Source of the DNA: Alphaproteobacteria bacterium
Lineage (GTDB): Bacteria > Pseudomonadota > Alphaproteobacteria > Micavibrionales > Micavibrionaceae
Direction: 5' to 3'
Length of the DNA: 45,226 bases
Assembly (NCBI GenBank): GCA_023301785.1
Contig: JALZUF010000239.1
Location: 1 to 45,226 of the forward strand
The stretch's first letter is position 1. Every line of letters starts with the position of its first letter. Both the position numbers and the translations under genes were made by a program. Of the stretch, positions 100 to 45,226 are shown in pieces. The notes under the pieces are model-generated. The model was given only the letters and a program-made list of their open reading frames with translations, was not told the DNA's origin and ran no database searches.

Positions 100-840
100 A
101 CCCATACCTGCGAGTAAAGCTTCCATACCAGAACCTTCAAAGTTCGTAGCATCCATGATTAGTTCCTGAATAAAGTTGTTAGACTGTTTAGAAACTACTT
201 TCTCTCCGTCTACTTCCTCAGTAACTTCTCGTTCACCTTCAATGAATAGTGAATCCCACATATCCATAGTAGGAGCATCGAACTGAAAGAATTGGTACTC
301 ACGGGCTGTAGGTTTAATCTTAGAAGTCATATCAACTAGTTCAACTTCACCGTCATCATCGGTTTCTTCTTTGAAAGGTCCACCAATAGCTTTAAGGTTA
401 GCGTAAGTGCGATCCTTAACTTTGTTATGCTCAATAGTAACCTTGAACACATCAGACAGCATTTCACCCATGTTCTTTAGATCACGACCATAAGCCATGT
501 CTTTAAACAATTTGTTAAAACGTGATTTAGGACTGTTACTAATTAGAAGGTTAGTAATACGTAGTAAGCGATAACTAGTTTCCTCTTTACCATCTTTCTC
601 GAACGTATCTTTGTTCTTCTTACCGTATACTTCAAACGTAAGGTTACATTTAGGAGCAGGGTCTTTAGGCTTACCTTCATACTCACCCGGCTGATCGCCC
701 AGTTCTACATAACCAATTAGTCTAGCGAACGCTACGCCCTTCTCAGGAATACGCGCACCAAAACCTTTTTTGGTTACTGAATGGTCAGCTACTTCACCTG
801 CATTTTTTGCTTGTGCTAATAGTTTTTTATTTAATGACAT
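1..840 (-). CDS. N-terminal 280 codons of a 337-aa putative ssDNA-binding protein (gp2.5-like). It continues at 45127 after removal of the 99-bp overlap.
   Basis: ATG at 840 overlaps the upstream stop (TAATG). I translated codon by codon to position 1 with no stop (MSLNKKLLAQAKNAGEV...GMGEEEEIEEEDDEDEEVDVEDIDLDEDDEEEEVEE). It lies between the DNA polymerase and the exonuclease and has an acidic C-terminal tail. The SSB call is an inference. Confidence 0.45.
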   Translation of the reverse strand, partial: MSLNKKLLAQAKNAGEVADHSVTKKGFGARIPEKGVAFARLIGYVELGDQPGEYEGKPKDPAPKCNLTFEVYGKKNKDTFEKDGKEETSYRLLRITNLLISNSPKSRFNKLFKDMAYGRDLKNMGEMLSDVFKVTIEHNKVKDRTYANLKAIGGPFKEETDDDGEVELVDMTSKIKPTAREYQFFQFDAPTMDMWDSLFIEGEREVTEEVDGEKVVSKQSNNFIQELIMDATNFEGSGMEALLAGMGEEEEIEEEDDEDEEVDVEDIDLDEDDEEEEVEE

Positions 841-1138: not shown

Positions 1139-3400
1139 TTATGATACGTGTTTTAAGTCTAACATGTTCGCCCCAGCTTCTACGTCCACTGGAAACGGAA
1201 CACTAATTTCTACTCCAAATTGTGCAAACCATTCTGGTACGGACTCCATGATACGTTTAATGTCCTTACAAACATCGTCTTTAACGTCAGGATGAGCGTC
1301 TGCCCAGATACAGTCATGCACGGTGTTACACAGTACTGCTTTACCACCATAGTTGTCATTGGAAACGAAGTGTCTCCAAAGTTTACCACAGATACCTTGA
1401 ACTATCTCTCCACCTGTACCTTGAACTGGGTAGTTCTTGATCTCAGTAGGGGAAAAGTTCTCAGTGACTCCGCGTTTAGCTAACCACTCAGGCGCATCGT
1501 ATGTCCTAAAGGAATACATACAACCTGTTGGTGCTTGCCAGTACCCGCGTTTAAAGGTTCTAAAACCCATTGTCGGATCGACAAATTTCTTACTACGCTC
1601 TATAGCTGACTGCTCTACAGATTCATTAAAGATTGTTACGCCCGGATATGTTTCTTCCTCGGCAATAATAAGGGCTTTAACGTCATCTACGTGCATACCA
1701 GTAGAAAGCGCAATTAACGAAGCACCTGCACCGTACGCACGCTGAAAAGAGAAGATTTTAGCTTGCGTTCTAATCTTCTTCCATTTTTTGTGATCTGGGT
1801 GGTCTTCGTTTTTAATTATTTTGACTAGTTCATTGTAAGTAATGTTGTACTTTTTTTGTAAAGCTACTCGCTTACAGTGAAAGTCTATCTTAGCGTTTAA
1901 ATCGGCACACAGGTTCTTATCATTAGTAAGTACACCCTGAACAACTACTTCCAACTGGCTGTAGTCAGCTTCTATAGTATATCCATCATTGAAGCGCGAT
2001 ATAAAAAGTCGTTTAAGATTGCTTTTGTCTGCGCGGGGGATATTCTGTAGATTAGGGTCGCTTGAAGATAAGCGTGCTGTAACTGTTGCCACATTATTAA
2101 GTGAGTGGTGTATTCTGTCTTCACCGGGCACGACACAAGTGAGCATACCCTTCTTTTCGCCAGTCTTTGCATCGACCTTGACGAAATAAGTTCCGATCTC
2201 TTTAGAGAGTGCTTCGTACTCAGATAAAGCCTCAAGAAAAGGAATTCCCGTCCCAGCCAAAGCTTCCACAATTTCAGCTTTTGTCGAGTAGAGAGAGTTC
2301 CCAGCCCCGTCCTTTGTTTTTGTAGCCCAGTCTGCTTGTGGCAGAATATATCCGGGCAGCTCAAAGAAGAAATCTTGAAATTTGACTTTAAGTTCACCTT
2401 GAACCTCCACTTGTTTAGTTTTAGCTAATCCTGCCTTCTTACCACTCTTAAATGTCAGCATCCCTTTAGGGGCTGCACAGTCGTCATGGTCGTCTGGTGC
2501 TGGTACATCTGATACTTCACCATCTTCTTTAATGTAGAACTTCTGAGTAGCTTTTAACCGAGCTAGTTTACCTGTCTTAACATCAATGAATGTATCCTGT
2601 CGTTTGTACTTGATACAACCGCCAAATATGATACAGGATTTGTGTGTAGGCGAACCCCAGTTGAAGTCTAACCCTTCGGGCAGTTCAGGTAAGGACTCTT
2701 CTAGGAAAGCCTCTACTACTCTGTACTTAGCCCGTAGTTCTTTAAACTGTTTCTTGGCTTCATCTTTGTCAATTTGTAGACCGTTCCACTCCATCTCAAC
2801 GAGAGCACATAAACCATCCATACGGGACTTTATTGCCTTCATCATACCTAGCTTCTTAGCGCGTTTGATTTGACCTAAGAATGCTTTCTCTGTATTCCCA
2901 ATGTCTCCACCATTACGCTCTTCCTCTTCCGTACCTACTAGGTAGTCAATTAGGAGGTCTTTGTTAATATCGCTAGTCTGTACACCAGCTTCCCATAGAA
3001 TTTTGACTTCATCAATCTTCTTAGTTCCACCATACTTTTCTGCGATCTGGTCTAATGAACAGTAATGATACTTAGGGTCTTGACCAGACAGCAGGTACTC
3101 TGCGTACTGACAGTCCCAAATAATACCACCACGTTTAAAGAATGCTATAAGGTCAGGGTTGTCCCACTGCCATAGCAAATCAAATTTTAGATTAAAACCT
3201 ACAAGACAAGTTATGTCGTCTTCAATAGTTATGTAGTGCTTGCCCTGCTTCTCCCAGTACTCCCAGCTACATTTCAAATCTCCTTGGTTCTTCCAACCCG
3301 CAGCAACAATATAGTTGTCGGGATGCCAAGGGGAGGCTTTACGTTTCTTATAAATATGGGTTTGGGTTTCTAAGTCGTATACTTTGTATTTAAACTTCAT
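1139..3400 (-). CDS. Family A DNA polymerase with 3'-5' exonuclease domain (T7 gp5-like)
   Basis: Exo I motif YDLET, motif A DYSQLEVVV, motif B RTQAKIFSFQRAYGAG, motif C NTVHDC. 753 aa. Confidence 0.95.
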   Translation of the reverse strand: MKFKYKVYDLETQTHIYKKRKASPWHPDNYIVAAGWKNQGDLKCSWEYWEKQGKHYITIEDDITCLVGFNLKFDLLWQWDNPDLIAFFKRGGIIWDCQYAEYLLSGQDPKYHYCSLDQIAEKYGGTKKIDEVKILWEAGVQTSDINKDLLIDYLVGTEEEERNGGDIGNTEKAFLGQIKRAKKLGMMKAIKSRMDGLCALVEMEWNGLQIDKDEAKKQFKELRAKYRVVEAFLEESLPELPEGLDFNWGSPTHKSCIIFGGCIKYKRQDTFIDVKTGKLARLKATQKFYIKEDGEVSDVPAPDDHDDCAAPKGMLTFKSGKKAGLAKTKQVEVQGELKVKFQDFFFELPGYILPQADWATKTKDGAGNSLYSTKAEIVEALAGTGIPFLEALSEYEALSKEIGTYFVKVDAKTGEKKGMLTCVVPGEDRIHHSLNNVATVTARLSSSDPNLQNIPRADKSNLKRLFISRFNDGYTIEADYSQLEVVVQGVLTNDKNLCADLNAKIDFHCKRVALQKKYNITYNELVKIIKNEDHPDHKKWKKIRTQAKIFSFQRAYGAGASLIALSTGMHVDDVKALIIAEEETYPGVTIFNESVEQSAIERSKKFVDPTMGFRTFKRGYWQAPTGCMYSFRTYDAPEWLAKRGVTENFSPTEIKNYPVQGTGGEIVQGICGKLWRHFVSNDNYGGKAVLCNTVHDCIWADAHPDVKDDVCKDIKRIMESVPEWFAQFGVEISVPFPVDVEAGANMLDLKHVS

Positions 3401-7604: not shown

Positions 7605-8881
7605 TCTGCTTCTACCTCTTCTCCGTCCACATAACCCATATCAATATAACGGGCGCGGTCACGGTCAAATGTGACTTCCTCTTGAAGTCGTTGTGATTTA
7701 ACTCTACGTAATTTGTTCTTAGGTAAGGACAACCAACGCTTACTTGCTAACAGGGGTTCACGCTCCATAGAGCCAATCATTAACTGAAACTCACATGCAC
7801 CTTGTTTACCTGTTTTACTGTCTTTAAGATTAGACAATCCGGGGAATTGCATATTAGACCCTTCCTCAGAAATCTGTGACGTGGCTAAAGCAATAGCATC
7901 GTACTTGACCGCCTTTTCTCTAGCCCACTGGTACAGACGTTCTAGTCTCAAGTCCATACGTTGTGCATCTCCGAAGCCTGATATATTATCTATCATATCG
8001 TAAACTATTAAGCCCGGTGTAGTATGCTGAATGATACCCTCTACCTGTCCTATGTTAGCTCCGTGAATGTCCATTACCCGTATACGACCTTCACCACCCA
8101 CAGCTTCAAAGTACGCGTCATACAGTGTACCCTCTTCTTTCATGGCTATAAGCTCAGTCATAGTTATGTTAAGGGCAGCTTGCATCAAGCGTGGTCTAAT
8201 TGCATAACCGGGTCCTTCATTATTTAACCATAGTATAGGTCTACCTTCGGGCAGTTGTTTAGCCATATACGTGAGTTCTGAACATAAAAAGCTAGTCTTA
8301 CCTTGGTCTGGTCTAGCAGCAATGATACCAAAATCACCACCTCTTAAACCGCGCATAGCAGAGCTGAGTGAATCTAATCTCCACTGAACTCCGCTGTCAT
8401 TACCCATGTCGTCAATCAACTCGTCAATGTTCTCTGATACCTCTGGTAGAGCAGATATACCCACATCTGTTTTGTAGGAATCTAGCACAGTAGACAACTT
8501 ACCTATAAGGTCAGTCTCTTCACCGTCAGCATAGCGTTCTGTAATCATACGTGTTTCGTGCATTAGGTTATTTTCTAGTACACTTTCTAATATAGCTGCT
8601 CTGTCTTCCTGATTAGGGTAGTTCTTACCCATAGTCTTAATAACATTTTTGTAAGTTTTCTGCTCTTCTTTGTCCATGTCGGGAACTACGTTACGAAGAA
8701 AGAATGGTATAAATAGGTTGAAATCTATTTGACCGTGGTTAGGGTGTTTATCGTAGTATCTGCCTACACCCTTAAAAAGAACTTTTGTTTTCTTGTCTAA
8801 GGTATCTACATTTACTGCACCCTCAATCCGATTGTAATCGGTACGTGTCCTGCACGTTCGTAATAATTGAATGTCAAGCAT
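7601..8881 (-). CDS. Replicative DNA helicase (DnaB / T7 gp4 helicase-domain-like)
   Basis: Walker A GIIAARPDQGKTSF and Walker B-like LIVYDMIDNI. 426 aa, immediately downstream of the primase. Confidence 0.9.
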   Translation of the reverse strand: MLDIQLLRTCRTRTDYNRIEGAVNVDTLDKKTKVLFKGVGRYYDKHPNHGQIDFNLFIPFFLRNVVPDMDKEEQKTYKNVIKTMGKNYPNQEDRAAILESVLENNLMHETRMITERYADGEETDLIGKLSTVLDSYKTDVGISALPEVSENIDELIDDMGNDSGVQWRLDSLSSAMRGLRGGDFGIIAARPDQGKTSFLCSELTYMAKQLPEGRPILWLNNEGPGYAIRPRLMQAALNITMTELIAMKEEGTLYDAYFEAVGGEGRIRVMDIHGANIGQVEGIIQHTTPGLIVYDMIDNISGFGDAQRMDLRLERLYQWAREKAVKYDAIALATSQISEEGSNMQFPGLSNLKDSKTGKQGACEFQLMIGSMEREPLLASKRWLSLPKNKLRRVKSQRLQEEVTFDRDRARYIDMGYVDGEEVEAE

Positions 8882-10761: not shown

Positions 10762-11138
10762 TATCTTACGCCTCCTCGCGCTAGGTTTGTATAGAATTTA
10801 AGTTTGATATACGGGCAGTTCTTTGTGAACGTGTCATCGGGTAGAACGTGCCACCATCTATGTTTAGGGAATACACTATGTAAGTTAAATCCCCGTGATT
10901 TGGCTGCGGCTTTGAACGCGTTTCTCTGGCAAGCACTGCGCTTGAAACGTCTTGAAAGTCGAAACCAGTTGTTAAGTGTAAGCTTCTTCTGTAAATAGAA
11001 GTAGTCTTTTAGCCTAGCTCTTATGTCCAGCGCACCTATAAATGCTAGAGGCGCGGCAAACAATGTAACCTTAGTCAGTAGGAGCATAGCTAATGTGAAT
11101 AATAACGGTAAGAATACCACAAGAGCTATGTATTTCAT
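10761..11138 (-). CDS. Membrane protein (N-terminal TM segments, basic C-terminus)
   Basis: 125 aa, MKYIALVVFLPLLFTLAMLLLTKVTLFAAPLAFIGAL. ATGA overlap with the upstream gene. Confidence 0.7.
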   Translation of the reverse strand: MKYIALVVFLPLLFTLAMLLLTKVTLFAAPLAFIGALDIRARLKDYFYLQKKLTLNNWFRLSRRFKRSACQRNAFKAAAKSRGFNLHSVFPKHRWWHVLPDDTFTKNCPYIKLKFYTNLARGGVR

Positions 11139-11733: not shown

Positions 11734-11888
11734 TACACCTCCATAAAGGACACGCACATAAAGCGGTCATCTGGTCTATTGTGTTTCAGTATCTCTAATG
11801 TGTCTTTACACACGTCCATAGAGTCATAACCGTACAAACTAAGTAAGGGTATGAATTGGTCTGTTATTAGATAAACTATTGTTTCCAT
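11733..11888 (-). CDS. Hypothetical protein (51 aa; below the ORF-track cutoff)
   Basis: Hand-translated: METIVYLITDQFIPLLSLYGYDSMDVCKDTLEILKHNRPDDRFMCVSFMEV. AAGGAGGA SD upstream. This is the first ORF after the tRNA-like element. Confidence 0.65.
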   Translation of the reverse strand: METIVYLITDQFIPLLSLYGYDSMDVCKDTLEILKHNRPDDRFMCVSFMEV

Positions 11889-11905
11889 GTAATCCTCCTT
11901 TGTTG

Positions 11906-12000
11906 TGGAGAGGAGTGGTAGGGTTTGAACCTACATCCGACTGTATAGGGCTAACTACCCATTGACAGTTGAACTACCAGTGTTAGCGTCTACACTCCTC
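11906..12000 (-). ncRNA. Aberrant 95-nt tRNA-like element; anticodon and identity unresolved
   Basis: Minus-strand sequence: GAGGAGTGTAGACGCTAACACTGGTAGTTCAACTGTCAATGGGTAGTTAGCCCTATACAGTCGGATGTAGGTTCAAACCCTACCACTCCTCTCCA. It has a perfect 8-bp acceptor-type stem (GAGGAGTG/CACTCCTC), a canonical T arm (GTAGG-TTCAAAC-CCTAC) and an encoded T-CCA end. The interior carries two D-arm-like motifs but no canonical anticodon arm. Confidence 0.5.
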
Positions 12001-12035
12001 ATAAAAGAACACAGGAGGAGGATATTCCTGTGTTC
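12001..12035 (-). terminator. Rho-independent terminator candidate (possible early-region terminator)
   Basis: Perfect 9-bp stem GAACACAGG/CCTGTGTTC (12007-12015 / 12027-12035) with an 11-nt loop, followed on the minus strand by TTTTAT. It abuts the 5' end of the tRNA-like element. Confidence 0.6.
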
Positions 12036-12050
12036 ATTTATAGGGAGTCA

Positions 12051-12088
12051 AGAGCAGGGAGTGTCTGTGACGTTATCCTCCCTGCTCT
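12051..12088 (-). promoter_or_regulatory. Perfect 11-bp inverted repeat (AGAGCAGGGAG / CTCCCTGCTCT) with a 16-nt loop
   Basis: Read directly from the sequence. No U-tract follows on the minus strand, so it is not a classical intrinsic terminator. Confidence 0.6.
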
Positions 12089-12169
12089 ATGTACCACCAC
12101 CTGCGTACCGTCACGCGCTCAAGTGGTATAAAGATAATGCTCTATCCATAACTGACTTTGAACGGGTAG

Positions 12170-12361
12170 TCAATCAAACCACATGTCTTGCACGATACGC
12201 AACAGGGTTGCAACTGTTTCTACTGACAGTGCTTGATTGTTGCCTGACTCCTGACCGTGCGGCATTGAAGTCAAAACTGGTGTTGTGCCTATGTCTAAAC
12301 AGCACTCTAATTCGTTCTCTATGTGTTGCATACGCTGAGAAGTTACTAGTCTCCTTAGCAA
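12170..12361 (-). CDS. Doubtful small ORF (acidic, 52-63 aa)
   Basis: The track ORF starts at a TTG. The internal ATG at 12331 lies 18 nt from the nearest SD. A competing Arg-rich ORF (12174-12452) overlaps it in another frame. Neither has the good SD spacing seen for almost every other gene here. Confidence 0.3.
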   Translation of the reverse strand: MLRRLVTSQRMQHIENELECCLDIGTTPVLTSMPHGQESGNNQALSVETVATLLRIVQDMWFD

Positions 12362-13100: not shown

Positions 13101-13304
13101 CTATTCCTCCTTATGTTCGTGTACACTCTGTATCATAGTACACTTGGTTACTTTGTGCTCTGTGTAGAATGTCTCTGTATCCATAAAGCCTACCACACCG
13201 TCCTCGGTTGTCAAGCATTTAGCAGTCCATAGTCCTACTTTAACATAATCACAACCTGCCTCGTCATAGAACAAGTCGCCTATATTCAATTCATCAAATG
13301 TCAT
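13101..13304 (-). CDS. Hypothetical early protein (67 aa)
   Basis: Start moved to the ATG at 13304 (AGGAGG SD, directly after the upstream TAA): MTFDELNIGDLFYDEAGCDYVKV... Confidence 0.7.
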   Translation of the reverse strand: MTFDELNIGDLFYDEAGCDYVKVGLWTAKCLTTEDGVVGFMDTETFYTEHKVTKCTMIQSVHEHKEE

Positions 13305-14439: not shown

Positions 14440-14721
14440 TTAGTTAGTATAGACCACCCATGTACGAGTTGTCAAGTTAAATCTTTCATAGCCCATTGTC
14501 TTACGTACTATTGTTACGACTGCGCTAAATACAAGCCCTGCTACGATAGCCACGCTCATGCCTGTTAATGTACCAGCCATCAATATACAAAACATGGCTG
14601 TTGCTGTCAAGTCTGCTAATACTGGATAGCCTACTATTCGTTTAAGGTTAATTCTACAGCACACCACTATAAATGCAGTTGCTACTAGAAAGCCCATAAA
14701 TAAAATACCTATAACACTCAT
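14440..14721 (-). CDS. First early gene: small membrane protein (93 aa, about 3 TM)
   Basis: AAGGAGGA SD. Strongly hydrophobic sequence. Confidence 0.8.
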   Translation of the reverse strand: MSVIGILFMGFLVATAFIVVCCRINLKRIVGYPVLADLTATAMFCILMAGTLTGMSVAIVAGLVFSAVVTIVRKTMGYERFNLTTRTWVVYTN

Positions 14722-14744
14722 AATTTCCTCCTTGGTTATACTAC

Positions 14745-14904
14745 TTATATGATTATACGTGGACTGTAGCGGCTTGCTCTTATCCTGTTGCTACCAGTTA
14801 AACGTCTTTCGATACTGCGAGATAGCTTGTCTCATATATCCGTCCGGCTATTAACTTTACCTACATGGCGGTTCATTCCCTTCGAACCACGTATAATCAT
14901 ATAA
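14745..14904 (-). promoter_or_regulatory. Structured early-leader element: perfect 18-bp long-range inverted repeat enclosing 124 nt
   Basis: 14745-14762 (ttatatgattatacgtgg) is the exact reverse complement of 14887-14904. It lies downstream of the three early promoters and 23 nt upstream of the first early ATG. Confidence 0.6.
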
Positions 14905-14929
14905 ATGGTATACATACCAAATGATTATA
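14892..14929. repeat. Nested palindrome: TATAATCAT / ATGATTATA (9 bp) flanking TGGTAT-AC-ATACCA
   Basis: Read directly. It shares one arm (14892-14900) with the 18-bp long-range repeat, so the two pairings are mutually exclusive. Confidence 0.7.
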
Positions 14930-15006
14930 ATTAAATGGATTGTCTAATTGCCTAGCGACCGCCCCATTCCCTTGCATATACCCCAAGTCAGGTTAATTCT
15001 TATATT

Positions 15007-15035
15007 AGTATATCTAAGCTTTATTTGTTTGTCAA
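15007..15035 (-). promoter_or_regulatory. Sigma70-type early promoter P3 (TTGACA-N17-TATACT)
   Basis: Minus strand: -35 at 15035-15030, -10 at 15012-15007, 17-nt spacer counted base by base. Confidence 0.7.
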
Positions 15036-15140
15036 TACTTAGTTTAAACTTATTTGATTAAAGAGTCTGACTAGTCTTATCAGTGACACTCATTCGGTGT
15101 TTGTTTGACTGTAATGTCTATTCGTTTAATCAGTGTTTAA

Positions 15141-15169
15141 AGTATCTCATATTAAATAAAGAATGTCAA
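15141..15169 (-). promoter_or_regulatory. Sigma70-type early promoter P2 (TTGACA-N17-GATACT)
   Basis: Minus strand: -35 at 15169-15164, -10 at 15146-15141. GATACT is the same -10 hexamer as T7 A1. The upstream sequence is AT-rich. Confidence 0.7.
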
Positions 15170-15231
15170 CACTTAAATTAAAAAGATTAGGTTGGTTATT
15201 ATTTACCGTGTGTTCCTTATCTTGTAATTAC

Positions 15232-15260
15232 ATTATGCCATGATGAATAACTAAAGTCAA
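15232..15260 (-). promoter_or_regulatory. Sigma70-type early promoter P1 (TTGACT-N17-CATAAT with TGn extended -10)
   Basis: Minus strand: -35 at 15260-15255, -10 at 15237-15232, preceded by TGG. It shares the AATTTAnnTGTTGAC upstream context with P2. Confidence 0.7.
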
Positions 15261-15348
15261 CAACTAAATTAAATAAAATAGATAGATATTAAAAACCGCC
15301 CGTGTGCCACCCTTTTTTACTAGTGTTTTAAAGGCTTAGATACAGAAT

Positions 15349-15597
15349 AGCGTATATGTGTACCGTATAGATATAATACAGTATATACCCAGTATAGATA
15401 TAAGGAGTAATGAACAGTATATAATACAGTATAGATGATGAGTATATAAGACAGAATGATAAAGATAGATACCCCGCTAGGTGTACAGTGAATACACAGT
15501 ATATATACTATGAATAAGAACAGACCATACACCCCCTTAATACCTCGTATCAAATGAGTAGTATAATTGTATAGGAATCACGGCACACGCGTATAAA
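15349..15597. repeat. Degenerate array of about 12 GTATA(G/T)A-core repeats (iteron-like) in non-coding DNA
   Basis: Core copies are near 15351, 15365, 15381, 15392, 15417, 15429, 15442, 15499, 15546, 15561, 15569 and 15591. The exact 12-mer GTATAGATATAA occurs twice (15365, 15392). The exact 14-mer TATAATACAGTATA occurs twice (15372, 15420). Confidence 0.85.
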
Positions 15598-15704
15598 TAA
15601 ATAAGACAGGGCAAAGGGGGAAAGAAAAGTGGGGTTTTGGTTAATTACCCTCTTACAAATCTACATCATTTTTACAGAATCACTCCATCTATATTTTTTT
15701 TAAT

Positions 15705-15778
15705 TGGCACAGGCACTAGGAATCGAACCCAGATTAACGGGTTTGGAATCCGCTACTCTACCATTGAGTTATACCTGT
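15705..15778 (-). tRNA. tRNA-Trp (anticodon CCA), CCA end encoded
   Basis: Hand-folded cloverleaf: acceptor ACAGGTA/TGCCTGT, D arm ACTC-AATGGTA-GAGT, anticodon loop TTCCAAA, T arm CTGGG-TTCGATT-CCTAG, then GCCA. One A-C mismatch at the base of the anticodon stem. 74 nt. Confidence 0.85.
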
Positions 15779-15823
15779 ATAATTAGAACGGCTCTATTTG
15801 CCCCATAGAAGCACGTAGAACGC

Positions 15824-15862
15824 AATAAACCCCACTCAGGCACACATAGTACCTAAGCGGGG
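15824..15862 (-). terminator. Rho-independent terminator after the collagen-like fibre gene
   Basis: 11-bp stem CCCCGCTTAGG/CCTGAGTGGGG. It includes two G-U pairs that exist only in minus-strand RNA. TTTATT follows. Confidence 0.7.
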
Positions 15863-15882
15863 CTAAAACGTCTGTACGAGCC

Positions 15883-16557: not shown

Positions 16558-18471
16558 TTATGTGTCAGTTACTACGATCTGTGCACGATGCAGGGTTACT
16601 GAACCGTTTACCGAACCCAGCGTAGTATTGGCTTGTGGTATTAACCGCCCTCGAATATACGTTGAAGATGGTACTAGCATCTTAGGAGTACGTAGGACTA
16701 GGTTTCTACCTTTTTCTAAACACCACGCACGGTAAGCATTTACCGGAATGTGCGTAGTCTCATTGTGCCTATCAAAACCGTTAGATAAGAACCCAAGGTT
16801 AGTGCGTAACTGTATAATCAAACCGCGTAGGTTTGCGTTGTTAGTCCGTACTAAGTCTTCTGGGAACGAAATCTCAGCTTCATAATAAGCATATTTATTA
16901 GCGTAGTTAGTATTGGTCTGCTGTAGGCTTTCAGGACCTACCTCAGTACCAGTGCCTTGCGCCTCGTCTATAACAAGAGTCTCATTTACTATAACAGTAG
17001 ATAAAACATTGTCAGCAGAAGAGCGGAAGTTGCGTGCACCCACTAAACCTACTAGAGCTTCATAAAGTGCAGCACCCATGTAGAATGCGCCAAGCATGTT
17101 AGGATGCAAACCATCGTACGTAACGTCTGCGATATTATCTATCCAATCTTGCCTAAAGTCTGCAAATACGACATTAGGGTAATTACGTAGGAAGTTATCT
17201 ACCTCCACTTCTTTGACTCTCTCGTCTATAATCTCTTGTGCTGTAAAGCCACGACTTATGTAGTCAGAATCCGGTCTTGGAGTACAGGATAAAGCTATAA
17301 TCTTTTTACCTTCCGCTTGGATAGCTTTGAACATTGCAGTAATGTTATCAATGCTCCATGCAGAGGTGCGTTTAGCAGATCGGTCATTGGCACAACCTAA
17401 GAAGAATACAAAATCTCCATCAGAACTAGTAACATCAGTAATACGCGCAAGCATCTCTGCTGTGTCGTCACTACTGACCCCAAAGTTATTAGCGTCACTG
17501 AATTCGAATCGGTGTCCTAGCATAGCCTGTAAAGCAGTGAAGTAACCTAGAGACTCAAATACATTAACAGCAGAGTTTTGATTGGTCATACTGTCTCCCA
17601 AAAGATCAGCTATCAGCTTCTCTCGTGTAAGACCGGGTAAATGACCGTGTATCATTAACTGTTTATGTACCCTCTTTGCGATCTCATTATGACCTTTAGC
17701 ATTCCAGTGTACTTCATCGGGTGTTACACCATCGAATTGCACTGAGTGTATGTGGTCTGCATAATTTAGATCGTCTGTTCGGATATAATGCACGTTAGGC
17801 ATACTTATATTCTTTGTAGCTTCTCGTATATTAAACCAACGCGGGTAGTTGCTTGCAAATAAAGTAGGCGGTGTAGGACCTAACCCGATAACAAACACAG
17901 GTAAGTTAGGCTGGTTACGCGCAGTACGGAACTCCGTGATCCATGTCTCTAAAATACCCAGTATAGTGTCACCGTTTGCATTAGCAAAGGTTGTATCCTT
18001 ACCTAATAGGTGTAGAGTTACAAAACTTAGCTTTGCAGCAGTCTTCAACTCAGCAGCATCCAGTAAAGAATGTATCTGAGTTTTAGTTTCCTCGCTTGTC
18101 CACCCAGAGTTTATGTTATTTAGAGCTGTAGCGGACTGCCCAGCAGTAACTACACATACTCTATTGCTAACACTCTCTCTGAGTAGCTCTGGTAGGATAT
18201 TATTCTTGTTATATCGCCCAGCTTCGTTCAGTCTACCATAAGTATTGACCGATTGCTGGTTTAATGGGGTACTAATATCTTGAATAGTGTCGTTATGCTT
18301 GTATACACGACTAAATTGGTCGTTTACAAGTTCAAACTCCTCACCAGCGGTATTTAGGGCAGTACCACCACCCACAGGACCGTTAGAACCACCAATATCC
18401 GCATATAGCGTGTATCCAGTAGTTATCTTTGGAGTTTCATCCCTATATGGATGATCGTAAGGTAACGGCAT
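16558..18471 (-). CDS. Double SGNH/GDSL-type esterase (putative polysaccharide O-acetylesterase, tailspike-like)
   Basis: Domain 1: TAGQS (SASA-like block I) and DEVHWNAKGH (block V). Domain 2: FFLGCANDRS (block III) and YDGLHPNMLGA (block V). 637 aa. Confidence 0.7.
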   Translation of the reverse strand: MPLPYDHPYRDETPKITTGYTLYADIGGSNGPVGGGTALNTAGEEFELVNDQFSRVYKHNDTIQDISTPLNQQSVNTYGRLNEAGRYNKNNILPELLRESVSNRVCVVTAGQSATALNNINSGWTSEETKTQIHSLLDAAELKTAAKLSFVTLHLLGKDTTFANANGDTILGILETWITEFRTARNQPNLPVFVIGLGPTPPTLFASNYPRWFNIREATKNISMPNVHYIRTDDLNYADHIHSVQFDGVTPDEVHWNAKGHNEIAKRVHKQLMIHGHLPGLTREKLIADLLGDSMTNQNSAVNVFESLGYFTALQAMLGHRFEFSDANNFGVSSDDTAEMLARITDVTSSDGDFVFFLGCANDRSAKRTSAWSIDNITAMFKAIQAEGKKIIALSCTPRPDSDYISRGFTAQEIIDERVKEVEVDNFLRNYPNVVFADFRQDWIDNIADVTYDGLHPNMLGAFYMGAALYEALVGLVGARNFRSSADNVLSTVIVNETLVIDEAQGTGTEVGPESLQQTNTNYANKYAYYEAEISFPEDLVRTNNANLRGLIIQLRTNLGFLSNGFDRHNETTHIPVNAYRAWCLEKGRNLVLRTPKMLVPSSTYIRGRLIPQANTTLGSVNGSVTLHRAQIVVTDT

Positions 18472-21244: not shown

Positions 21245-23029
21245 TTATCTCCTAAATTTATCGAAAATTGAATTATGCGCTGGACCACCGTGAATGTGCT
21301 TCAACCTATTACTTCCGTCTCCCAAGGGATCGGATACTAGTTGTCTCCAAGCTTCTTCACGCGCTCTAGCTACTTCTCTATCCTTATCGACTGCTAACAT
21401 TTCAGTCCAATGTCTACAAGACCCAGCGACAGCATCTAGTCTGTCATCGTGTCCTAGTGAACCTTTGTCCCGTGTTAAACGAGCCATCTGAAAGAACAGA
21501 CTGTATAAAGAACGGAGTTCAAGCCCGTACTTCCCACATCTCTTCCAATCCAATTCGATAAGGTCTTTATCTACAATCAAACGCTGTCCACCTATTAAGG
21601 GTTCTAACGCTTCAATTATACGTAGTTCTTTTTGACCAGTTTCGTATACACCTTCAATAGCACAGGCATGTTTCTCCAGTATTAAGGGAGTAATAACCTG
21701 TCTAAATGTACCAGCTCCAAAGTTGTCCTCAAAGTCAATCTGGTCAGGTCGCCATATCTCAGCTAGGTTAGCAATATACTTTTGGTTTGCTTCATGCAAG
21801 CCTCCGGGTATACCACCTACATCTACTAGATATACGTAACCTGATCTAAACTTTGTAACTGCCCAAGCCAGCTCATCACCATTCTTACCGCCACCAGACG
21901 GGTCAATATACATGTGAGTACCTTGGAAGTCAGCCCATTCATCTCCGTGTCCATGAATTTCATAGAAATCTATATCAATCGGAAAGTCTTGAGCAGTATG
22001 AATTCGGTATTCTGGGCTAGGCAACCAATCTACAAATAAAGGTATACGCTGTTTAGGTATAACCATAAATACTAGTTTACCCGGTTTAAGTGGGTATCTA
22101 TCCGCATCCATTAGACGCGTATCTAGCATGTGTTGTAGTTGGAAATATGCCGAACCTTGGTCAATTTCTTTTTTAGTTAATGTTTCTTCATCAAGTAGCA
22201 CCGGATCAACGGGCTTACCTCTTTCACCAGTCGGTCCACCACCAGTACGTAAGTCAGGATTATTTGTCATACGTGTTAGGATAAGTGGAGCTAGTGCATT
22301 ACCGTAGTTCTCTTGTTCAGTTTCAGTAGGGTATCTCCCTGTCCAAACTCGAACGGTGTAACCACGACTAGGTAAGCTGTTATAAACGGAGTCAATACTC
22401 TGTGGTGTTCCTAGATAAACAATCTTACCTTTGGAACATATAGAAGTAAAGTCTCGCGTAAGCTGTCTCAATTTCTCTCTTTGGACCTCCGACTCAGAGT
22501 TCTTAGATGATTCAATATCATCCGCGATCAATAAGTCAGCACGTCTACCTTGAATGTTTGAGGTAACACCTAAACAAGCAACAGAGGGTGATTTTTCAGG
22601 ACCTTTAAGACTGTAGTGAACGTCAAACGCTTCTACAGACTGTCTATCCCCGTTGGAGGGGTCTGGTCTTAAACACTCTAATTGTGACATACCCATAATG
22701 ATCTGAATGATCCAGTTAGCGATCTCTTTAGCAAGAGGACCACCAGCGGATACAATCAGTGTTCGGGTAGTAGGGTCATGGATCATACGCCACACAGCAT
22801 ATATAGCTGTAATAGTCGTCTTAGCCTGACCCCGTTGTGCTTGGATCATACTGTACTGTGGACCAGTGGATAGGAAATTACCTATGTCCAACTGAATGTC
22901 TGTACAATTAAATCCTAAGAAGTCCGTGATTACGTCTTCCAATAATACGTTGAAGTCAGCGTAGTGCTCTCGAAGTAGTTTTAATTTGTCCCAGCGTAAC
23001 TGGGCATCTTGTAAACTCTCTCTAGCCAT
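21245..23029 (-). CDS. Terminase large subunit (T7 gp19-like)
   Basis: Walker A-like QRGQAKTT and Walker B-like ADLLIADDIES. 594 aa. Confidence 0.9.
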   Translation of the reverse strand: MARESLQDAQLRWDKLKLLREHYADFNVLLEDVITDFLGFNCTDIQLDIGNFLSTGPQYSMIQAQRGQAKTTITAIYAVWRMIHDPTTRTLIVSAGGPLAKEIANWIIQIIMGMSQLECLRPDPSNGDRQSVEAFDVHYSLKGPEKSPSVACLGVTSNIQGRRADLLIADDIESSKNSESEVQREKLRQLTRDFTSICSKGKIVYLGTPQSIDSVYNSLPSRGYTVRVWTGRYPTETEQENYGNALAPLILTRMTNNPDLRTGGGPTGERGKPVDPVLLDEETLTKKEIDQGSAYFQLQHMLDTRLMDADRYPLKPGKLVFMVIPKQRIPLFVDWLPSPEYRIHTAQDFPIDIDFYEIHGHGDEWADFQGTHMYIDPSGGGKNGDELAWAVTKFRSGYVYLVDVGGIPGGLHEANQKYIANLAEIWRPDQIDFEDNFGAGTFRQVITPLILEKHACAIEGVYETGQKELRIIEALEPLIGGQRLIVDKDLIELDWKRCGKYGLELRSLYSLFFQMARLTRDKGSLGHDDRLDAVAGSCRHWTEMLAVDKDREVARAREEAWRQLVSDPLGDGSNRLKHIHGGPAHNSIFDKFRR

Positions 23030-35989: not shown

Positions 35990-36577
35990 TTAGCTTCCTC
36001 TCGGTATGTAAGAGCGTCTAGTTACTTCACGTAGTAGTCTGCTACCCATAGGGCTTGTGTTAATAGACACATCCTCATTAGCGAGATTCTCTCTCTGTAG
36101 GTACGCAAACGCTTCGGATTCGCGCTCTTTTAATTCTCTTACTTTATCCATGTCTCCGTCATCATCTGTGTAATGCTCTTTGACTGCTTTGGCTTCGATA
36201 TAAGCTGCTGCCATTTCAGGAAGTTCATCTATATCGAGCTGTAGTACTACCTGTACTTGAACAGCTTGCCCAATGTTATATGTATTGTTCGAACGATCAT
36301 ATAGTCGTTTACCTCTTTTTATATAAGAAGAGCGTGGATCAATAGGATCAACTGACAATGTGTTCTGAGGTACAATAACCTCGCCTGTCCCTACTTCTGG
36401 TGACAGTGTAAATGTCTCCTCGTTGAAATACCAACCACGAGACTGTATTCTCTTGTCAACGCGTTTAAGCACGTTGTTCGCTTGTATGGCTGACGGGTCA
36501 TTGCTGTCCGCAGAAGAAACTGGTGTCTCTCCGTTTACCGCTAACATAGCGTTTATAATTTCTAACCTAGTGGTCAT
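35990..36577 (-). CDS. Tail tubular protein A (T7 gp11-like)
   Basis: Start moved to the ATG at 36577 (AAGGAGA SD, downstream of the capsid terminator). MTTRLEIINAMLAVNGETPV...SRGWYFNEE. 195 aa. Confidence 0.9.
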   Translation of the reverse strand: MTTRLEIINAMLAVNGETPVSSADSNDPSAIQANNVLKRVDKRIQSRGWYFNEETFTLSPEVGTGEVIVPQNTLSVDPIDPRSSYIKRGKRLYDRSNNTYNIGQAVQVQVVLQLDIDELPEMAAAYIEAKAVKEHYTDDDGDMDKVRELKERESEAFAYLQRENLANEDVSINTSPMGSRLLREVTRRSYIPRGS

Positions 36578-36593
36578 TAAAATCTCCTTATAT

Positions 36594-36620
36594 AAAAAGA
36601 GGAGAGCCGAAGCTCCCCTC
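36594..36620 (-). terminator. Rho-independent terminator immediately after the major capsid gene (T-phi analogue)
   Basis: 9-bp stem GAGGGGAGC/GCTCTCCTC (one G-U pair valid only in minus-strand RNA), TTCG tetraloop, then TTTTT. Confidence 0.8.
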
Positions 36621-40565: not shown

Positions 40566-42977
40566 CTACCCGAAAAAGTACTCTGATTCAATGATCTTTT
40601 CTAAGTCGAGATCACCGTATTCAGGTACAACGGGAACAGCACCATCTTGTAGTACTAACGCACAGGATATATACAGGTCATGTAATGGTTCGTTATGCTT
40701 ATACATTTCTACAAACTCTTCGCGTATGATATTTCTTAACTTTGGTATGTCACAAGCATGTGTCCCGAAGTCATCGTGTACCATTGCGAAGTTGTTTATC
40801 CCCTGCTCTTTAGCTTTGTTAATAGTAAGCATCATGTGAGCAGAATCTAAACTGTGTACAAAATTAGGAGCTATCCCCTGCTTCTGCTTCTGTGGAGAAA
40901 CCACATTAGTAGAATTATTAAGGGATAAATGTACACCACCTAAGAGTAATGAGCGCACTCTCTGGCGCGTAGTTTTACAGTTGTTCTGGTAGACGGGAAA
41001 CCCGATAGGATTAACCCACCACACAGGCATGTTTTTCTCTGCCATCAGCACAGCTAGTTCTTGTAACCAATCCATAGCGTGCCGCGCAGCAACGACCACA
41101 TCCTCAATAGCAGCCCATAACTTGTAAGTCATATACGATACAACTTGGTTAGGGTCAGCAAAGAAGTCTGGGTCTAGTTCTTTTATAGCATCTCCAATAA
41201 AATCAAAGCAGGAGTACCTAGTGCTTCCGTAAGGTAGGGTCATAACGGGACGTTTAGCGATAGAACGTGGTATACCGTCATGCTTATCTGCAAACGCTAA
41301 CCATAGTGTTCTTTCATCACAGTGGTCGTCTTCTTTAATTAACTCTAATGCACGGTCAGCAACCTCTTGATATATGTCAGCAGGTTTGTCTCCGGGTAGC
41401 AGGTTAGTAGCTTCTCCGCCTACCTTATCTCGTAGTAAAGCAGAGAAATTCTGTATACCATTACACGATCCATCCATACCCACAGGTATACTAGTCATAT
41501 ACAATGGGTCTTCATTCGCCTGTACAAGCTCGTACATAGTCGAAAGGAACATGTATGGGTGGTCACTACCTCCCCAAAAATCAACGTGCTCTACGGGGCT
41601 TAAAACGGCTTGACGGGCATACTCCATCTGTGAGTCTGTCCACGCCACTCGTTCATCAAAGGAAACTTTATCTATACCATAGGAGTTAGCGGCATGTACC
41701 TTTAACCAGTACAGTCCTTCCTCGGTAATAGGTTTAGATTCTCCTAAGCGCAAGAGTGCACGGTTAAAATCTGCACCTTGTGGATTAAGCCCTGAGCTAC
41801 TGGCGTATACTCTACCTCTAAAGTCACATTGATACACAAAGTAAATGTTCTCGTAATCCTTGTAACCTCTAGCCATAGCAATAACACGCGCTATCTCATA
41901 CGAACGAGATGACCTACTAATTTCTTCTGTGTACAACTGAGCTACCTCAGCTTTCCACTTAATGAATTCTTCAAAAGTAGCTTCGTCCATTTCTTTAGGT
42001 TTAGTATCCACCTTAAACTTTGGAATGTCTATAGGTTCTTTCTTAGGCATACCTATACCAAGGTTCTTATCCCATACTTGCTGCATGGTTTTAAGTACGA
42101 ACTCATTTATTTTCCAAGGTGTTTGTTGCATAGAGTTTACGGCTGCGTACGCATTAGTCATATCGTGGTCTGATACAAACGCCTCTTCCGATTTAGTTAA
42201 ACCTTTAACAAACGGTGTTCTGTGTCGCATAGGCTCGGACCAGTACCCACCGTTCCGCATACCTGTCCAGTCGTCTGGCGGTATAATGCAGGGTTTAGTG
42301 TACGGGTGTAGTACAGAGGAGTATTCATTGAAACCTTCGATCCATTCTATAGCCTCAGTCGTAGCAACGACACGAAAGATACTCTTATTACGTGAGTACT
42401 TCTTGTCCATACGTATTATGTCGGTTGACTTTAGAACGCAGTCCACTAATAGAGAACCTACTCTAAGACGTTGTTCCTTAGACCAAGCATCCCATTCTAG
42501 CCCCTTCTTTTTAGAAGTTACCGCCAGCACATTACGTACGTGACGGTAGGACTTTGTGTTCTTACGTTGGAAGTCACTGACTAAGGTATTGTAGTACTGT
42601 GCGTTCATATCTTTGAAAGCACTAAACCTTATTTCATCCTCAATACGTAGACCAATCTCTAACGCTAAGGCGTTTAAGGGTTTACCTATATGTAACGAAT
42701 CCAGTATAGTCTTTAAAGCTACGTAGGCAGTGACGGTAGGGTCAACACCCTTAATCATCTTAGCGTACTTACCCAATCGTTTAGCTCTAGCGGAGTTACA
42801 GAACTCCTCTACATGCTCGGCTACAGGTACAACCAGATTCATAAGGAGTCTATTACCGTAGCCAGTGTCAGAGCCTCTGCCCTGATCCTCGGCAGACTTA
42901 GTATTCTTAAAGAAGCGATCAGCTCCTTGCAGAACTAAGTCGTCTTCCAGTCGTAGTTGATCCTTCAAATCAGGCAT
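40566..42977 (-). CDS. Single-subunit DNA-dependent RNA polymerase (T7-like)
   Basis: DGSCNGIQNFSA, PNFVHSLDSAHM and MVHDDFGTH correspond to the T7 RNAP catalytic motifs. 803 aa. Confidence 0.97.
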   Translation of the reverse strand: MPDLKDQLRLEDDLVLQGADRFFKNTKSAEDQGRGSDTGYGNRLLMNLVVPVAEHVEEFCNSARAKRLGKYAKMIKGVDPTVTAYVALKTILDSLHIGKPLNALALEIGLRIEDEIRFSAFKDMNAQYYNTLVSDFQRKNTKSYRHVRNVLAVTSKKKGLEWDAWSKEQRLRVGSLLVDCVLKSTDIIRMDKKYSRNKSIFRVVATTEAIEWIEGFNEYSSVLHPYTKPCIIPPDDWTGMRNGGYWSEPMRHRTPFVKGLTKSEEAFVSDHDMTNAYAAVNSMQQTPWKINEFVLKTMQQVWDKNLGIGMPKKEPIDIPKFKVDTKPKEMDEATFEEFIKWKAEVAQLYTEEISRSSRSYEIARVIAMARGYKDYENIYFVYQCDFRGRVYASSSGLNPQGADFNRALLRLGESKPITEEGLYWLKVHAANSYGIDKVSFDERVAWTDSQMEYARQAVLSPVEHVDFWGGSDHPYMFLSTMYELVQANEDPLYMTSIPVGMDGSCNGIQNFSALLRDKVGGEATNLLPGDKPADIYQEVADRALELIKEDDHCDERTLWLAFADKHDGIPRSIAKRPVMTLPYGSTRYSCFDFIGDAIKELDPDFFADPNQVVSYMTYKLWAAIEDVVVAARHAMDWLQELAVLMAEKNMPVWWVNPIGFPVYQNNCKTTRQRVRSLLLGGVHLSLNNSTNVVSPQKQKQGIAPNFVHSLDSAHMMLTINKAKEQGINNFAMVHDDFGTHACDIPKLRNIIREEFVEMYKHNEPLHDLYISCALVLQDGAVPVVPEYGDLDLEKIIESEYFFG

Positions 42978-44967: not shown

Positions 44968-45226
44968 CAAAGCAATCCTCAATCATTTCGTCTTCGTCAA
45001 TGTCCTCAACTACTTCCTTCTTAGCTTTTTTCTTAGAAGGGGATTTGGTCGCAGTCTTCGCAGAGGGTTCTGCCTTTTTCGATTTCTTTGCGGCAGTCTT
45101 GGCAGCGACCTTTTTCTTTTTTGGTGCTTCCTCTACTTCTTCCTCCTCATCGTCTTCATCAAGATCAATGTCTTCTACATCAACTTCTTCATCTTCATCG
45201 TCCTCTTCTTCGATCTCTTCTTCTTC
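44954..45226 (-). CDS. C-terminal part of the wrap-around SSB-like protein (unique part 44954-45127; 45128-45226 duplicates 1-99)
   Basis: The in-frame continuation is ...EEAPKKKKVAAKTAAKKSKKAEPSAKTATKSPSKKKAKKEVVEDIDEDEMIEDCFDDED, with the stop at 44954-44956. Confidence 0.45.
   Translation of the reverse strand, partial: EEEEIEEEDDEDEEVDVEDIDLDEDDEEEEVEEAPKKKKVAAKTAAKKSKKAEPSAKTATKSPSKKKAKKEVVEDIDEDEMIEDCFDDED
45128..45226. repeat. Right copy of the 99-bp terminal overlap
   Basis: Identical to 1-99. Confidence 0.95.

Follow-up and report, generated by a model that had tools for sequence, protein, structure and literature searches.

A conserved long-range RNA helix ahead of the first early gene of a T7-like phage, a candidate RNase III processing stalk

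In T7-like phages, the first gene has to be expressed within seconds after the DNA enters, and its transcripts start at several promoters; the solution in T7 is an RNase III site before gene 0.3. This site, R0.3, lies in the interval between promoter A3 (at 750) and gene 0.3 (at 925), at a position that we take to be about 890. RNase III-processed mRNA leaders also include those of lambda N and of the Escherichia coli genes adhE, pnp and rnc. It is documented that T7 early RNA is processed by RNase III and that the processing has a role in translating several phage mRNAs optimally (PMC4858673), and in rRNA operons boxA is combined with a long leader-trailer helix that bears an RNase III site (PMC10250234). 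Here we describe a long-range RNA helix in the early leader of a phage genome represented by contig JALZUF010000239.1 (assembly GCA_023301785.1; the whole stretch of 45,226 nt is referred to as the window). The helix directly precedes the first early gene, g1. We favor the interpretation, at a probability of roughly 0.55, that it is a conserved double-stranded RNA (dsRNA) processing stalk that would be cut by the host RNase III. Most likely, it would be a long-range counterpart of the T7 R0.3 site, built in the style of an rRNA leader-trailer helix.

A first-pass annotation of the window had reported perfect 18-nt complementarity between positions 14745-14762 and 14887-14904, with 124 nt enclosed. 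This is correct, and the inverted repeat grows to 26 nt with 92% complementarity (14737-14762 / 14887-14912; Table 1). As RNA, the 26-bp helix has 24 Watson-Crick pairs, one G-U pair and one C.A mismatch, and the two-arm duplex energy is -30.2 kcal/mol. A chance origin had been judged very unlikely, and we agree: the repeat ranks top among the inverted repeats of the whole 45-kb window, the 18-mer has only two sites in the window when as many as 3 mismatches are tolerated, and in shuffles 0.05 matches are expected, with two or more matches in 0/100. The element was also placed correctly between the last early promoter, P3 (-35 at 15035), and the first early gene (ATG at 14721), the helix occupying 14737-14912. 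The 3' arm had been placed 9 nt before the Shine-Dalgarno sequence; the corrected distance is 11 nt from the end of the 18-nt arm and 3 nt from the end of the extended helix.

Table 1. Positions of features in the window and of the early-leader helices in related contigs.
Feature	Position	Strand	Details
5' arm of long-range helix	14887..14912	minus	UAUACCAUUUAUAUGAUUAUACGUGG; inner CGUGG single-stranded beside local hairpin
3' arm of long-range helix	14737..14762	minus	CCACGUAUAAUCAUAUAAGUAGUAUA
Enclosed loop	14763..14886	minus	124 nt, purine-rich (61%), weakly structured, not conserved
Small loop hairpin	14766..14794	minus	GUAGC/GCUAC stem, 19-nt loop with AACAGGAUAAGAG (14777-14789)
Local hairpin	14892..14929	minus	outer stem UAUAAUCAU/AUGAUUAUA, inner stem GGUAU/AUACC; -9.1 kcal/mol
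Leader hairpin H1	14933..14969	minus	AAUGGGG...AAUCCAUU; homologous to L169 478-512
Shine-Dalgarno AAGGAGG of g1	14727..14733	minus	3 nt after extended helix
First early gene g1	14440..14721 (ATG 14721)	minus	93-aa small hydrophobic protein, no Pfam family
Predicted early promoter P1	15232..15260 (-35 at 15260)	minus	TTGACT-17-CATAAT, TG-extended; 10/12 consensus matches
Predicted early promoter P2	15141..15169 (-35 at 15169)	minus	TTGACA-17-GATACT, TG-extended; 10/12 consensus matches
Predicted early promoter P3	15007..15035 (-35 at 15035)	minus	TTGACA-17-TATACT; 11/12 consensus matches
boxA-like ACUCUUUAAUCAA	15054..15066	minus	between P2 and P3; putative function
tRNA-Trp	15705-15778	minus	ARAGORN / Rfam; within non-coding stretch, upstream of promoters
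T7-type large terminase	21245-23029	minus	
Single-subunit T7-type RNA polymerase	40566-42977	minus	~40% identity to Vibrio, Rhizobium, Agrobacterium Autographiviridae
Helix in L004	17180-17200 / 17292-17312		21 nt, 95%; encloses 91 nt; first ATG 17335
Helix in L029	2832-2854 / 2955-2977		23 nt, 91%; encloses 100 nt; first ATG 3001
Helix in L155	1309-1329 / 1395-1415		21 bp, one mismatch; encloses 65 nt; first ATG 1441
Helix in L169	563-583 / 708-728		21 nt, 90%; encloses 124 nt; first ATG 747
Helix in L170	570-595 / 650-675		26 nt, 92%; encloses 54 nt; first ATG 715
Helix in L014	7856-7881 / 7954-7979		26 nt, 88%; encloses 72 nt; first ATG 7988
Helix in L024	10695-10721 / 10783-10809		27 nt, 85%; encloses 61 nt; first ATG 10818

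The arrangement recurs in related phages. Relatives were collected via the terminase and the first early protein g1, after which the contigs were retrieved. Ten leaders were examined, and the arms were chosen as the best inverted repeat of each leader. In seven distinct related contigs the strongest leader inverted repeat directly precedes the first early gene (Table 1), which in L155 and L170 is not a g1 homologue. The helix is thus present at this one spot in eight of the ten leaders, despite the rarity of such repeats in the background (in ~162 kb of DNA from related phages, those of at least 20 nt and at least 85% turn up roughly every 16 kb). The predicted equilibrium pair probability of the helix is ~1.0 in each of the eight full-length leaders. 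Similar helices were also identified in two cultured relatives, Agrobacterium phage Atu_ph02 (813-843 / 906-936, with the gene at 943) and Rhizobium phage RHEph08 (L174; 2956-2978 / 3043-3065, before an early-region gene). The 3' arm includes the ribosome-binding site in L014, L024 and Atu_ph02.

The arm sequences are near-completely different between relatives (e.g., L170 vs L155). Some conservation is seen in the outer portion of the 5' arm (AUCCUUUUAU in three relatives), and the inner parts are unrelated in sequence, with complementarity retained. The outer 20 bp of six leaders were aligned gap-free to assess covariation. Standard pairs occupy 95.8% of the cells, versus 33-47% when the register is slid; both sides have changed in 16/20 pairs; and the observed pairing values were reached by 0/500 shuffles on any measure. 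The first-pass annotation would have counted arms that were absent or not co-varying in close relatives against a role for the element; we find them present and co-varying in the seven contigs. In our judgment, the long-range helix is very probably a selected RNA structure.

Conservation of an inverted repeat alone cannot separate DNA from RNA, and the hand count of ~4 G-U pairs vs 2 C.A/A.C mismatches is too small to fix the strand. A DNA-level element (a cruciform, replication origin, packaging signal or protein-binding site) would account for the repeat as such, but the arm sequences vary almost completely, which argues against a sequence-specific protein site. With spacers as long as 54-124 bp, cruciform extrusion is unfavorable, and the repeat always lies in the transcribed leader by the ribosome-binding site, sometimes containing it. 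We consider a DNA-level role, including the cruciform and protein-binding site raised in the first-pass annotation, to be very improbable. That annotation had further suggested a mobile insertion resembling a miniature inverted-repeat transposable element, for which 18-26-bp terminal inverted repeats around ~124 bp would be suitable. The genome has a single copy, no direct repeat flanks the arms (there is no target-site duplication), and in IMG/VR the arm 18-mer is found in two unrelated viral contigs, one chance match in each, neither in an inverted pair. Diverged versions occur at exactly the same position in relatives, and therefore point to vertical inheritance. An insertion of this type is rejected; its probability is close to nil.

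Additional candidates for the arms and leader were evaluated. A promoter in the 3' arm (TATAAT at 14752-14757) was set aside: on inspection the -35 position has 2/6 matches, the relatives do not share the TATAAT, and the promoter scan gave no site there. Promoters for the phage polymerase within or close to the arms were also rejected, as no repeated 16-mer family involves the leader. Rfam 15 covariance models gave no match to the leader and four relatives at permissive E-values.

Several other inverted repeats were recorded in these phages. Helices of 21-23 bp in L008 and L011 follow a gene end rather than recognizable promoters, and were not counted. Also not counted was a perfect 29-nt inverted repeat in L156 (1101-1129 / 1268-1296, enclosing 138 nt that include a 27-nt hairpin), which lies ~300 nt upstream of the first forward gene in a GC-rich phage of a different type that encodes a g1 homologue. 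Second long-range helices of 21-23 nt (87-95%, ~100 nt enclosed) occur ~5 kb into the early region of L014 (13096-13116 / 13214-13234) and L024 (15610-15632 / 15736-15758), and phages of this type may use several such stalks. The loop enclosed by the RHEph08 helix (2956-3065) holds a tRNA T-arm-like CACGGUUCGACUCCGGG.

The sequence enclosed by the helix varies greatly among relatives. Across the eight leaders, the enclosed loops are 54-124 nt long (a 2.3-fold range), are 53-62% purine, and have folding z-scores relative to shuffles of -2.7 to +1.4. The loop of the window had been described as modestly paired and of no known family; this holds, with z = +1.14 and no Rfam match. No Rfam family, tRNA or conserved open reading frame (ORF) was found in the enclosed loops. 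Between L004 and L029, identity is 90% in the promoter region, 86.5% in the upstream leader, 78-87% in the arms and 81.5% in the g1 coding sequence, whereas the enclosed loops are 52% identical, which is about random. The loop of the window is ~50% identical to those of its relatives, and the loops are unalignable even between close relatives. Given 52% identity in the loop and 82-90% in its flanks, the helix rather than the enclosed sequence appears to be the conserved element, and thus the selected part. Two possible loop functions were considered and discarded: a structured RNA (folding z-scores are near zero or positive) and a leader peptide (there is no conserved ORF, and on inspection the upstream ATGs are poorly spaced from any ribosome-binding site).

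If the stalk is cut, the enclosed 54-124-nt RNA could be released and target a host factor in trans, for example as an antisense RNA, a sponge or a decoy. Such a role would agree with cleavage by RNase III but would place the function in the loop. A sizeable loop is kept in all eight leaders, its RNA would rank among the first made in infection, and it diverges far faster than its flanks, as an arms-race molecule might. The 13-mer AACAGGAUAAGAG is common to the loops of the window and L029; in L029 it also lies in a 19-nt loop, where the closing stem is AUGGU/ACCAU (5 co-varying bp). Over all eight loops, however, the support for a shared motif (ACAGGAUAA) is marginal, as it is matched in 1/200 shuffles at k=9 and 39/200 at k=8. 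Reading this motif as a CsrA site or a Shine-Dalgarno mimic was considered and set aside. The lack of structure beyond that of shuffles, the failure to align between close relatives and the range in length also count against a trans-acting product, and neutral drift accounts for the same data. Thus, we view an excised small RNA as distinctly unlikely. It is very unlikely that the stalk cuts out the very first infection RNA, short, fast-evolving, largely unstructured and trans-acting on a host factor such as an RNA-binding protein or defense sensor, with the addition, in the window phage, of a timed co-transcriptional hand-over from hairpin to helix. If this were so, the hypervariability of the loop among 82-90%-identical phages would reflect an arms race, not drift.

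The first-pass annotation had also noted a 9-nt local pairing, in which 14892-14900 is perfectly complementary to 14921-14929 around the palindrome TGGTAT-AC-ATACCA, and this too is confirmed. The 3' half of the local hairpin sits within the 5' arm of the long helix, and both pairings use the same nucleotides; the 5' arm of the window is the hairpin 3' strand plus CGUGG. Transcripts of the window that are truncated before the 3' arm fold the local hairpin. A homologue of this hairpin was identified in L169 (515-549), where the outer stem UAUAAUC/GAUUAUA is conserved and the inner stem is compensatory (GGUAU/AUACC in the window vs AGAGA/UCUCU in L169). Hairpin H1 also has changes on both stem strands relative to its L169 counterpart. 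In L169 the hairpin is followed by a separate 5' arm without overlap, and ~29 nt present there are missing from the window. From this absence and the doubled use of the hairpin strand, we conclude that the mutual exclusivity of the two pairings is real and lineage-specific. No equivalent competing hairpin was seen in folds of L004, L029 and L155. The proposal that the pairings exclude each other therefore stands for the window, where nucleotides are shared, but the overlap is not conserved in these relatives or in L169. Comparison with L169 marks the local hairpin as an ancestral feature of the leader, and only in the window phage does it overlap the 5' arm. It is probably a folding intermediate during transcription, and the CGUGG beside it could act as a toehold.

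One explanation for the overlap is a bistable switch, in which the local hairpin and the long helix are two functional states that control the translation or stability of g1. The shared nucleotides and the folding of the hairpin in truncated transcripts would suit a switch, as would the compensatory inner stem in L169, which indicates that the pairing was kept although its 3' strand doubles as the 5' arm. The long helix also ends 3 nt from the ribosome-binding site. At equilibrium, however, occupancy of the long helix is ~100%, with an advantage of ~21 kcal/mol over the local hairpin (-30.2 vs -9.1), and the GC-rich 5-nt toehold favors fast displacement of the hairpin. The promoter/terminator scan listed no terminator-like site in the leader, and no Rfam riboswitch was detected there. 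In riboswitches and attenuators, alternative pairings are conserved and one state is a terminator or a hairpin that occludes the ribosome-binding site, and this combination was not found; L169 separates the hairpin from the 5' arm, and L004, L029 and L155 are without a competitor. The conformational switch suggested by the first-pass annotation is weakened by these results, and seems quite unlikely to us.

We return to the processing stalk as the preferred reading. Transcription from the three tandem promoters would yield leaders of ~278, 410 or 500 nt. The local hairpin (14892-14929) would fold first during transcription. The 3' arm would emerge ~140 nt later, its first bases (CCACG) pairing with the free CGUGG, and the 26-bp helix would then displace the local hairpin by a toehold-mediated route. 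RNase III would cut both strands of the helix, removing the promoter-specific leader and releasing the ~124-nt loop. The outcome would be a first early mRNA with one short, uniform 5' untranslated region (UTR), beginning ~15-30 nt ahead of the ribosome-binding site. The cleavage, the identity of the enzyme and the effect on translation or stability are what we infer here. The reading is supported by position: all three early promoters are upstream of the helix, and the first ribosome-binding site follows 3 nt after it. RNase III needs roughly two helical turns, and the helix is 21-27 bp in the window and the seven relatives, in keeping with a requirement for at least 20 bp of dsRNA. Where the ribosome-binding site is inside the 3' arm (L014, L024 and Atu_ph02), translation would need the helix to be cut or melted. 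Among the four options given in the first-pass annotation, the RNase III stalk is the best fit, on the basis of the T7 R0.3-like position, the near-perfect duplex and the unconserved contents.

The resemblance to T7 R0.3 is one of context. In both phages the site is in an early transcript of the host polymerase, where three strong promoters in tandem precede it and the first early gene follows closely, and a boxA-like sequence lies upstream. In T7 this is GCUCUUUAACAA at 814-825, upstream of R0.3; relative to it, ACUCUUUAAUCAA has an A in place of a G, plus one extra base. The expected result is also shared, a defined short 5' UTR for the first mRNA, with the cleavage in the window phage being a prediction. 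With rRNA stalks the window shares the architecture, a long-range helix of more than 17 bp formed from sequences that flank an insert, here with covariation in 16/20 pairs. Tandem promoters are ahead of the helix in both, preceded or accompanied by boxA in rRNA operons and by a putative boxA-like sequence in the window, the rRNA helix carries an RNase III site (PMC10250234), and both strands would be cut and the enclosed part released. Unlike the rRNA stalks, which enclose 1.5-2.9 kb of conserved functional RNA, those of the window clade enclose 54-124 nt of unconserved, weakly structured sequence, and the stalk of the window is directly followed by the ribosome-binding site of an mRNA. The RNase III-processed mRNA leaders are similar in having a 5'-UTR duplex whose cleavage alters downstream translation or stability, and in L014, L024 and Atu_ph02 the ribosome-binding site is buried within the 3' arm of the leader helix. 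Those leaders differ in that they are local hairpins in cellular or temperate-phage mRNAs, and in the window the ribosome-binding site adjoins the helix rather than lying inside it.

Several points weigh against a processing stalk. The cleavage would depend on the RNase III of an uncharacterized host. In T7, RNase III sites take the form of irregular local hairpins interrupted by internal loops rather than perfect long-range helices: R0.3 is a ~70-nt hairpin, and in sites of this type an internal loop or bulge directs single-strand cleavage, whereas in the window a 124-nt loop is closed by a near-perfect 26-bp helix. At the sequence level nothing resembles T7 (when T7 400-1000 was compared with the leader of the window by blastn-short, the only matches were chance 8-12-mers), and the window phage has a phiKMV-like gene order and an RNA polymerase that is ~40% identical to that of any cultured phage. 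A simple hairpin would suffice for cutting, yet a loop of 54-124 nt is kept in every relative. In most leaders, the predicted exposure of the ribosome-binding site shifts only modestly on cleavage, and any gain for translation in the window is therefore hypothetical. L154, with a leader of ~35 nt, is without a helix, and L172 is without a clear one. Finally, because the arms were chosen as best repeats, some of the pairing within a given sequence is built in by that choice; the evidence independent of it is the recurrence at one position, together with the sequence differences between phages.

A helix that stays uncut could insulate the ribosome-binding site from the three different leaders, stabilize the mRNA, or, as a structure in the nascent RNA, limit backtracking or termination of the host RNA polymerase on the untranslated leader. 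Retention of complementarity rather than sequence fits any structure-only role of this kind, the whole leader is rich in conserved hairpins, and a boxA-like element is upstream. The rRNA leader-trailer helix has an essential role that is independent of RNase III (PMC10250234). Nothing in the helix itself is specific to antitermination. In almost any bacterium, RNase III would be expected to act on an AU-rich and near-perfect duplex of 21-27 bp, so that staying uncut would need protection. We regard an uncut structural helix as unlikely, although deserving consideration.

The function proposed here is already known, and the principle is not new. What was not found described in Rfam or in the literature searched is the architecture, in which a near-perfect long-range stalk surrounds a hypervariable loop and is kept across a mostly uncultured T7-like clade. 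The clade includes at least one marine contig (TARA, L169), along with cultured relatives that infect alphaproteobacteria. This suggests that leader removal by dsRNA processing may be a general solution in the family, reached via a different architecture. The helix is a covariation-supported RNA element and possibly a natural 5'-UTR insulator part, and it raises the question of why a variable loop of 54-124 nt is always retained.

The window ends are identical over 99 nt (bases 1-99 equal 45128-45226), and thus the window is a circular assembly of a complete phage genome of ~45,127 bp (~45.1 kb). Physical ends or terminal repeats are not marked in the circular assembly. All genes and long ORFs are on the minus strand. 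Primase and helicase domains are encoded in addition to the RNA polymerase and terminase (Table 1), and the gene order is phiKMV-like, with the RNA polymerase placed after the DNA-metabolism genes. Judged by these genes, the phage is T7-like and of the Autographiviridae type. No cultured phage with similar DNA was found in INPHARED (queried by blastn and megablast with both the leader and a 25-kb part of the window); relatives there were detected at the protein level only, with RNA polymerase identity of at most 40%. A T7-type kinase (gp0.7), considered as an indirect link to RNase III, was not identified among the early ORFs scanned. Homologues of g1 occur at variable positions among early genes, in ~30 phage protein clusters.

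The sole large non-coding stretch of the window (14722-15882) contains, in order on the minus strand, tRNA-Trp, three sigma-70-type promoters and a leader of ~278 nt, followed by g1. At gathering thresholds, only tRNA-Trp (as called by Rfam, 15708-15778) passes an Rfam family threshold in the whole window. Transcripts are expected from the three predicted promoters, P3 being the last ahead of the leader, with a probable start near 14999. The P1 promoter block is kept in L004 and L029. The boxA-like ACUCUUUAAUCAA is identical in L004 and close in L029; its location upstream of P3 means that it is carried only by the P1 and P2 transcripts. Leaders of L014 and L024 carry CACUCUUAACC, which is also boxA-like, and these sequences may point to antitermination of early transcripts by Nus factors.

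A homologous upstream leader of ~210-260 nt with several hairpins (e.g., GCCUUAUUUCCUUACUGG and UGGUUUAGGAC) was identified in L004 (16966-17179), L029 (2621-2831) and L155 (1054-1308). It is mostly absent from the window, which instead has an upstream leader in common with L169. On sequence comparison, the leaders are modular. A metagenome scan with the P3 promoter pattern returned at least 120 loci, essentially all of them chance matches, and in IMG/VR the leader motif TGGTTTAGGN{5,6}TCCTTTTAT matched only the contig of L004 itself and sites within coding regions.

Other structured regions were noted in the window, both on the minus strand. A 416-nt intergenic region within the early genes (11758-12173) has a 28-bp hairpin (82%) at 11989-12053, and may be a second processing site. 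After the hairpin comes a segment in which GUAGGUUCAAACCCUAC resembles a tRNA T-arm; ARAGORN and Rfam made no call there. The second region has a 20-nt inverted repeat (95%; 36312-36331 / 36583-36602) with arms 251 nt apart. A terminator-like hairpin (GGGGAGCUUCGGCUCUCC) follows the capsid gene; the upstream arm of the repeat spans its U-tract and also covers the AAGGAGA ribosome-binding site of the next gene (ATG 36576), while the other arm is inside that gene. Pairing of the two arms could mask this ribosome-binding site.

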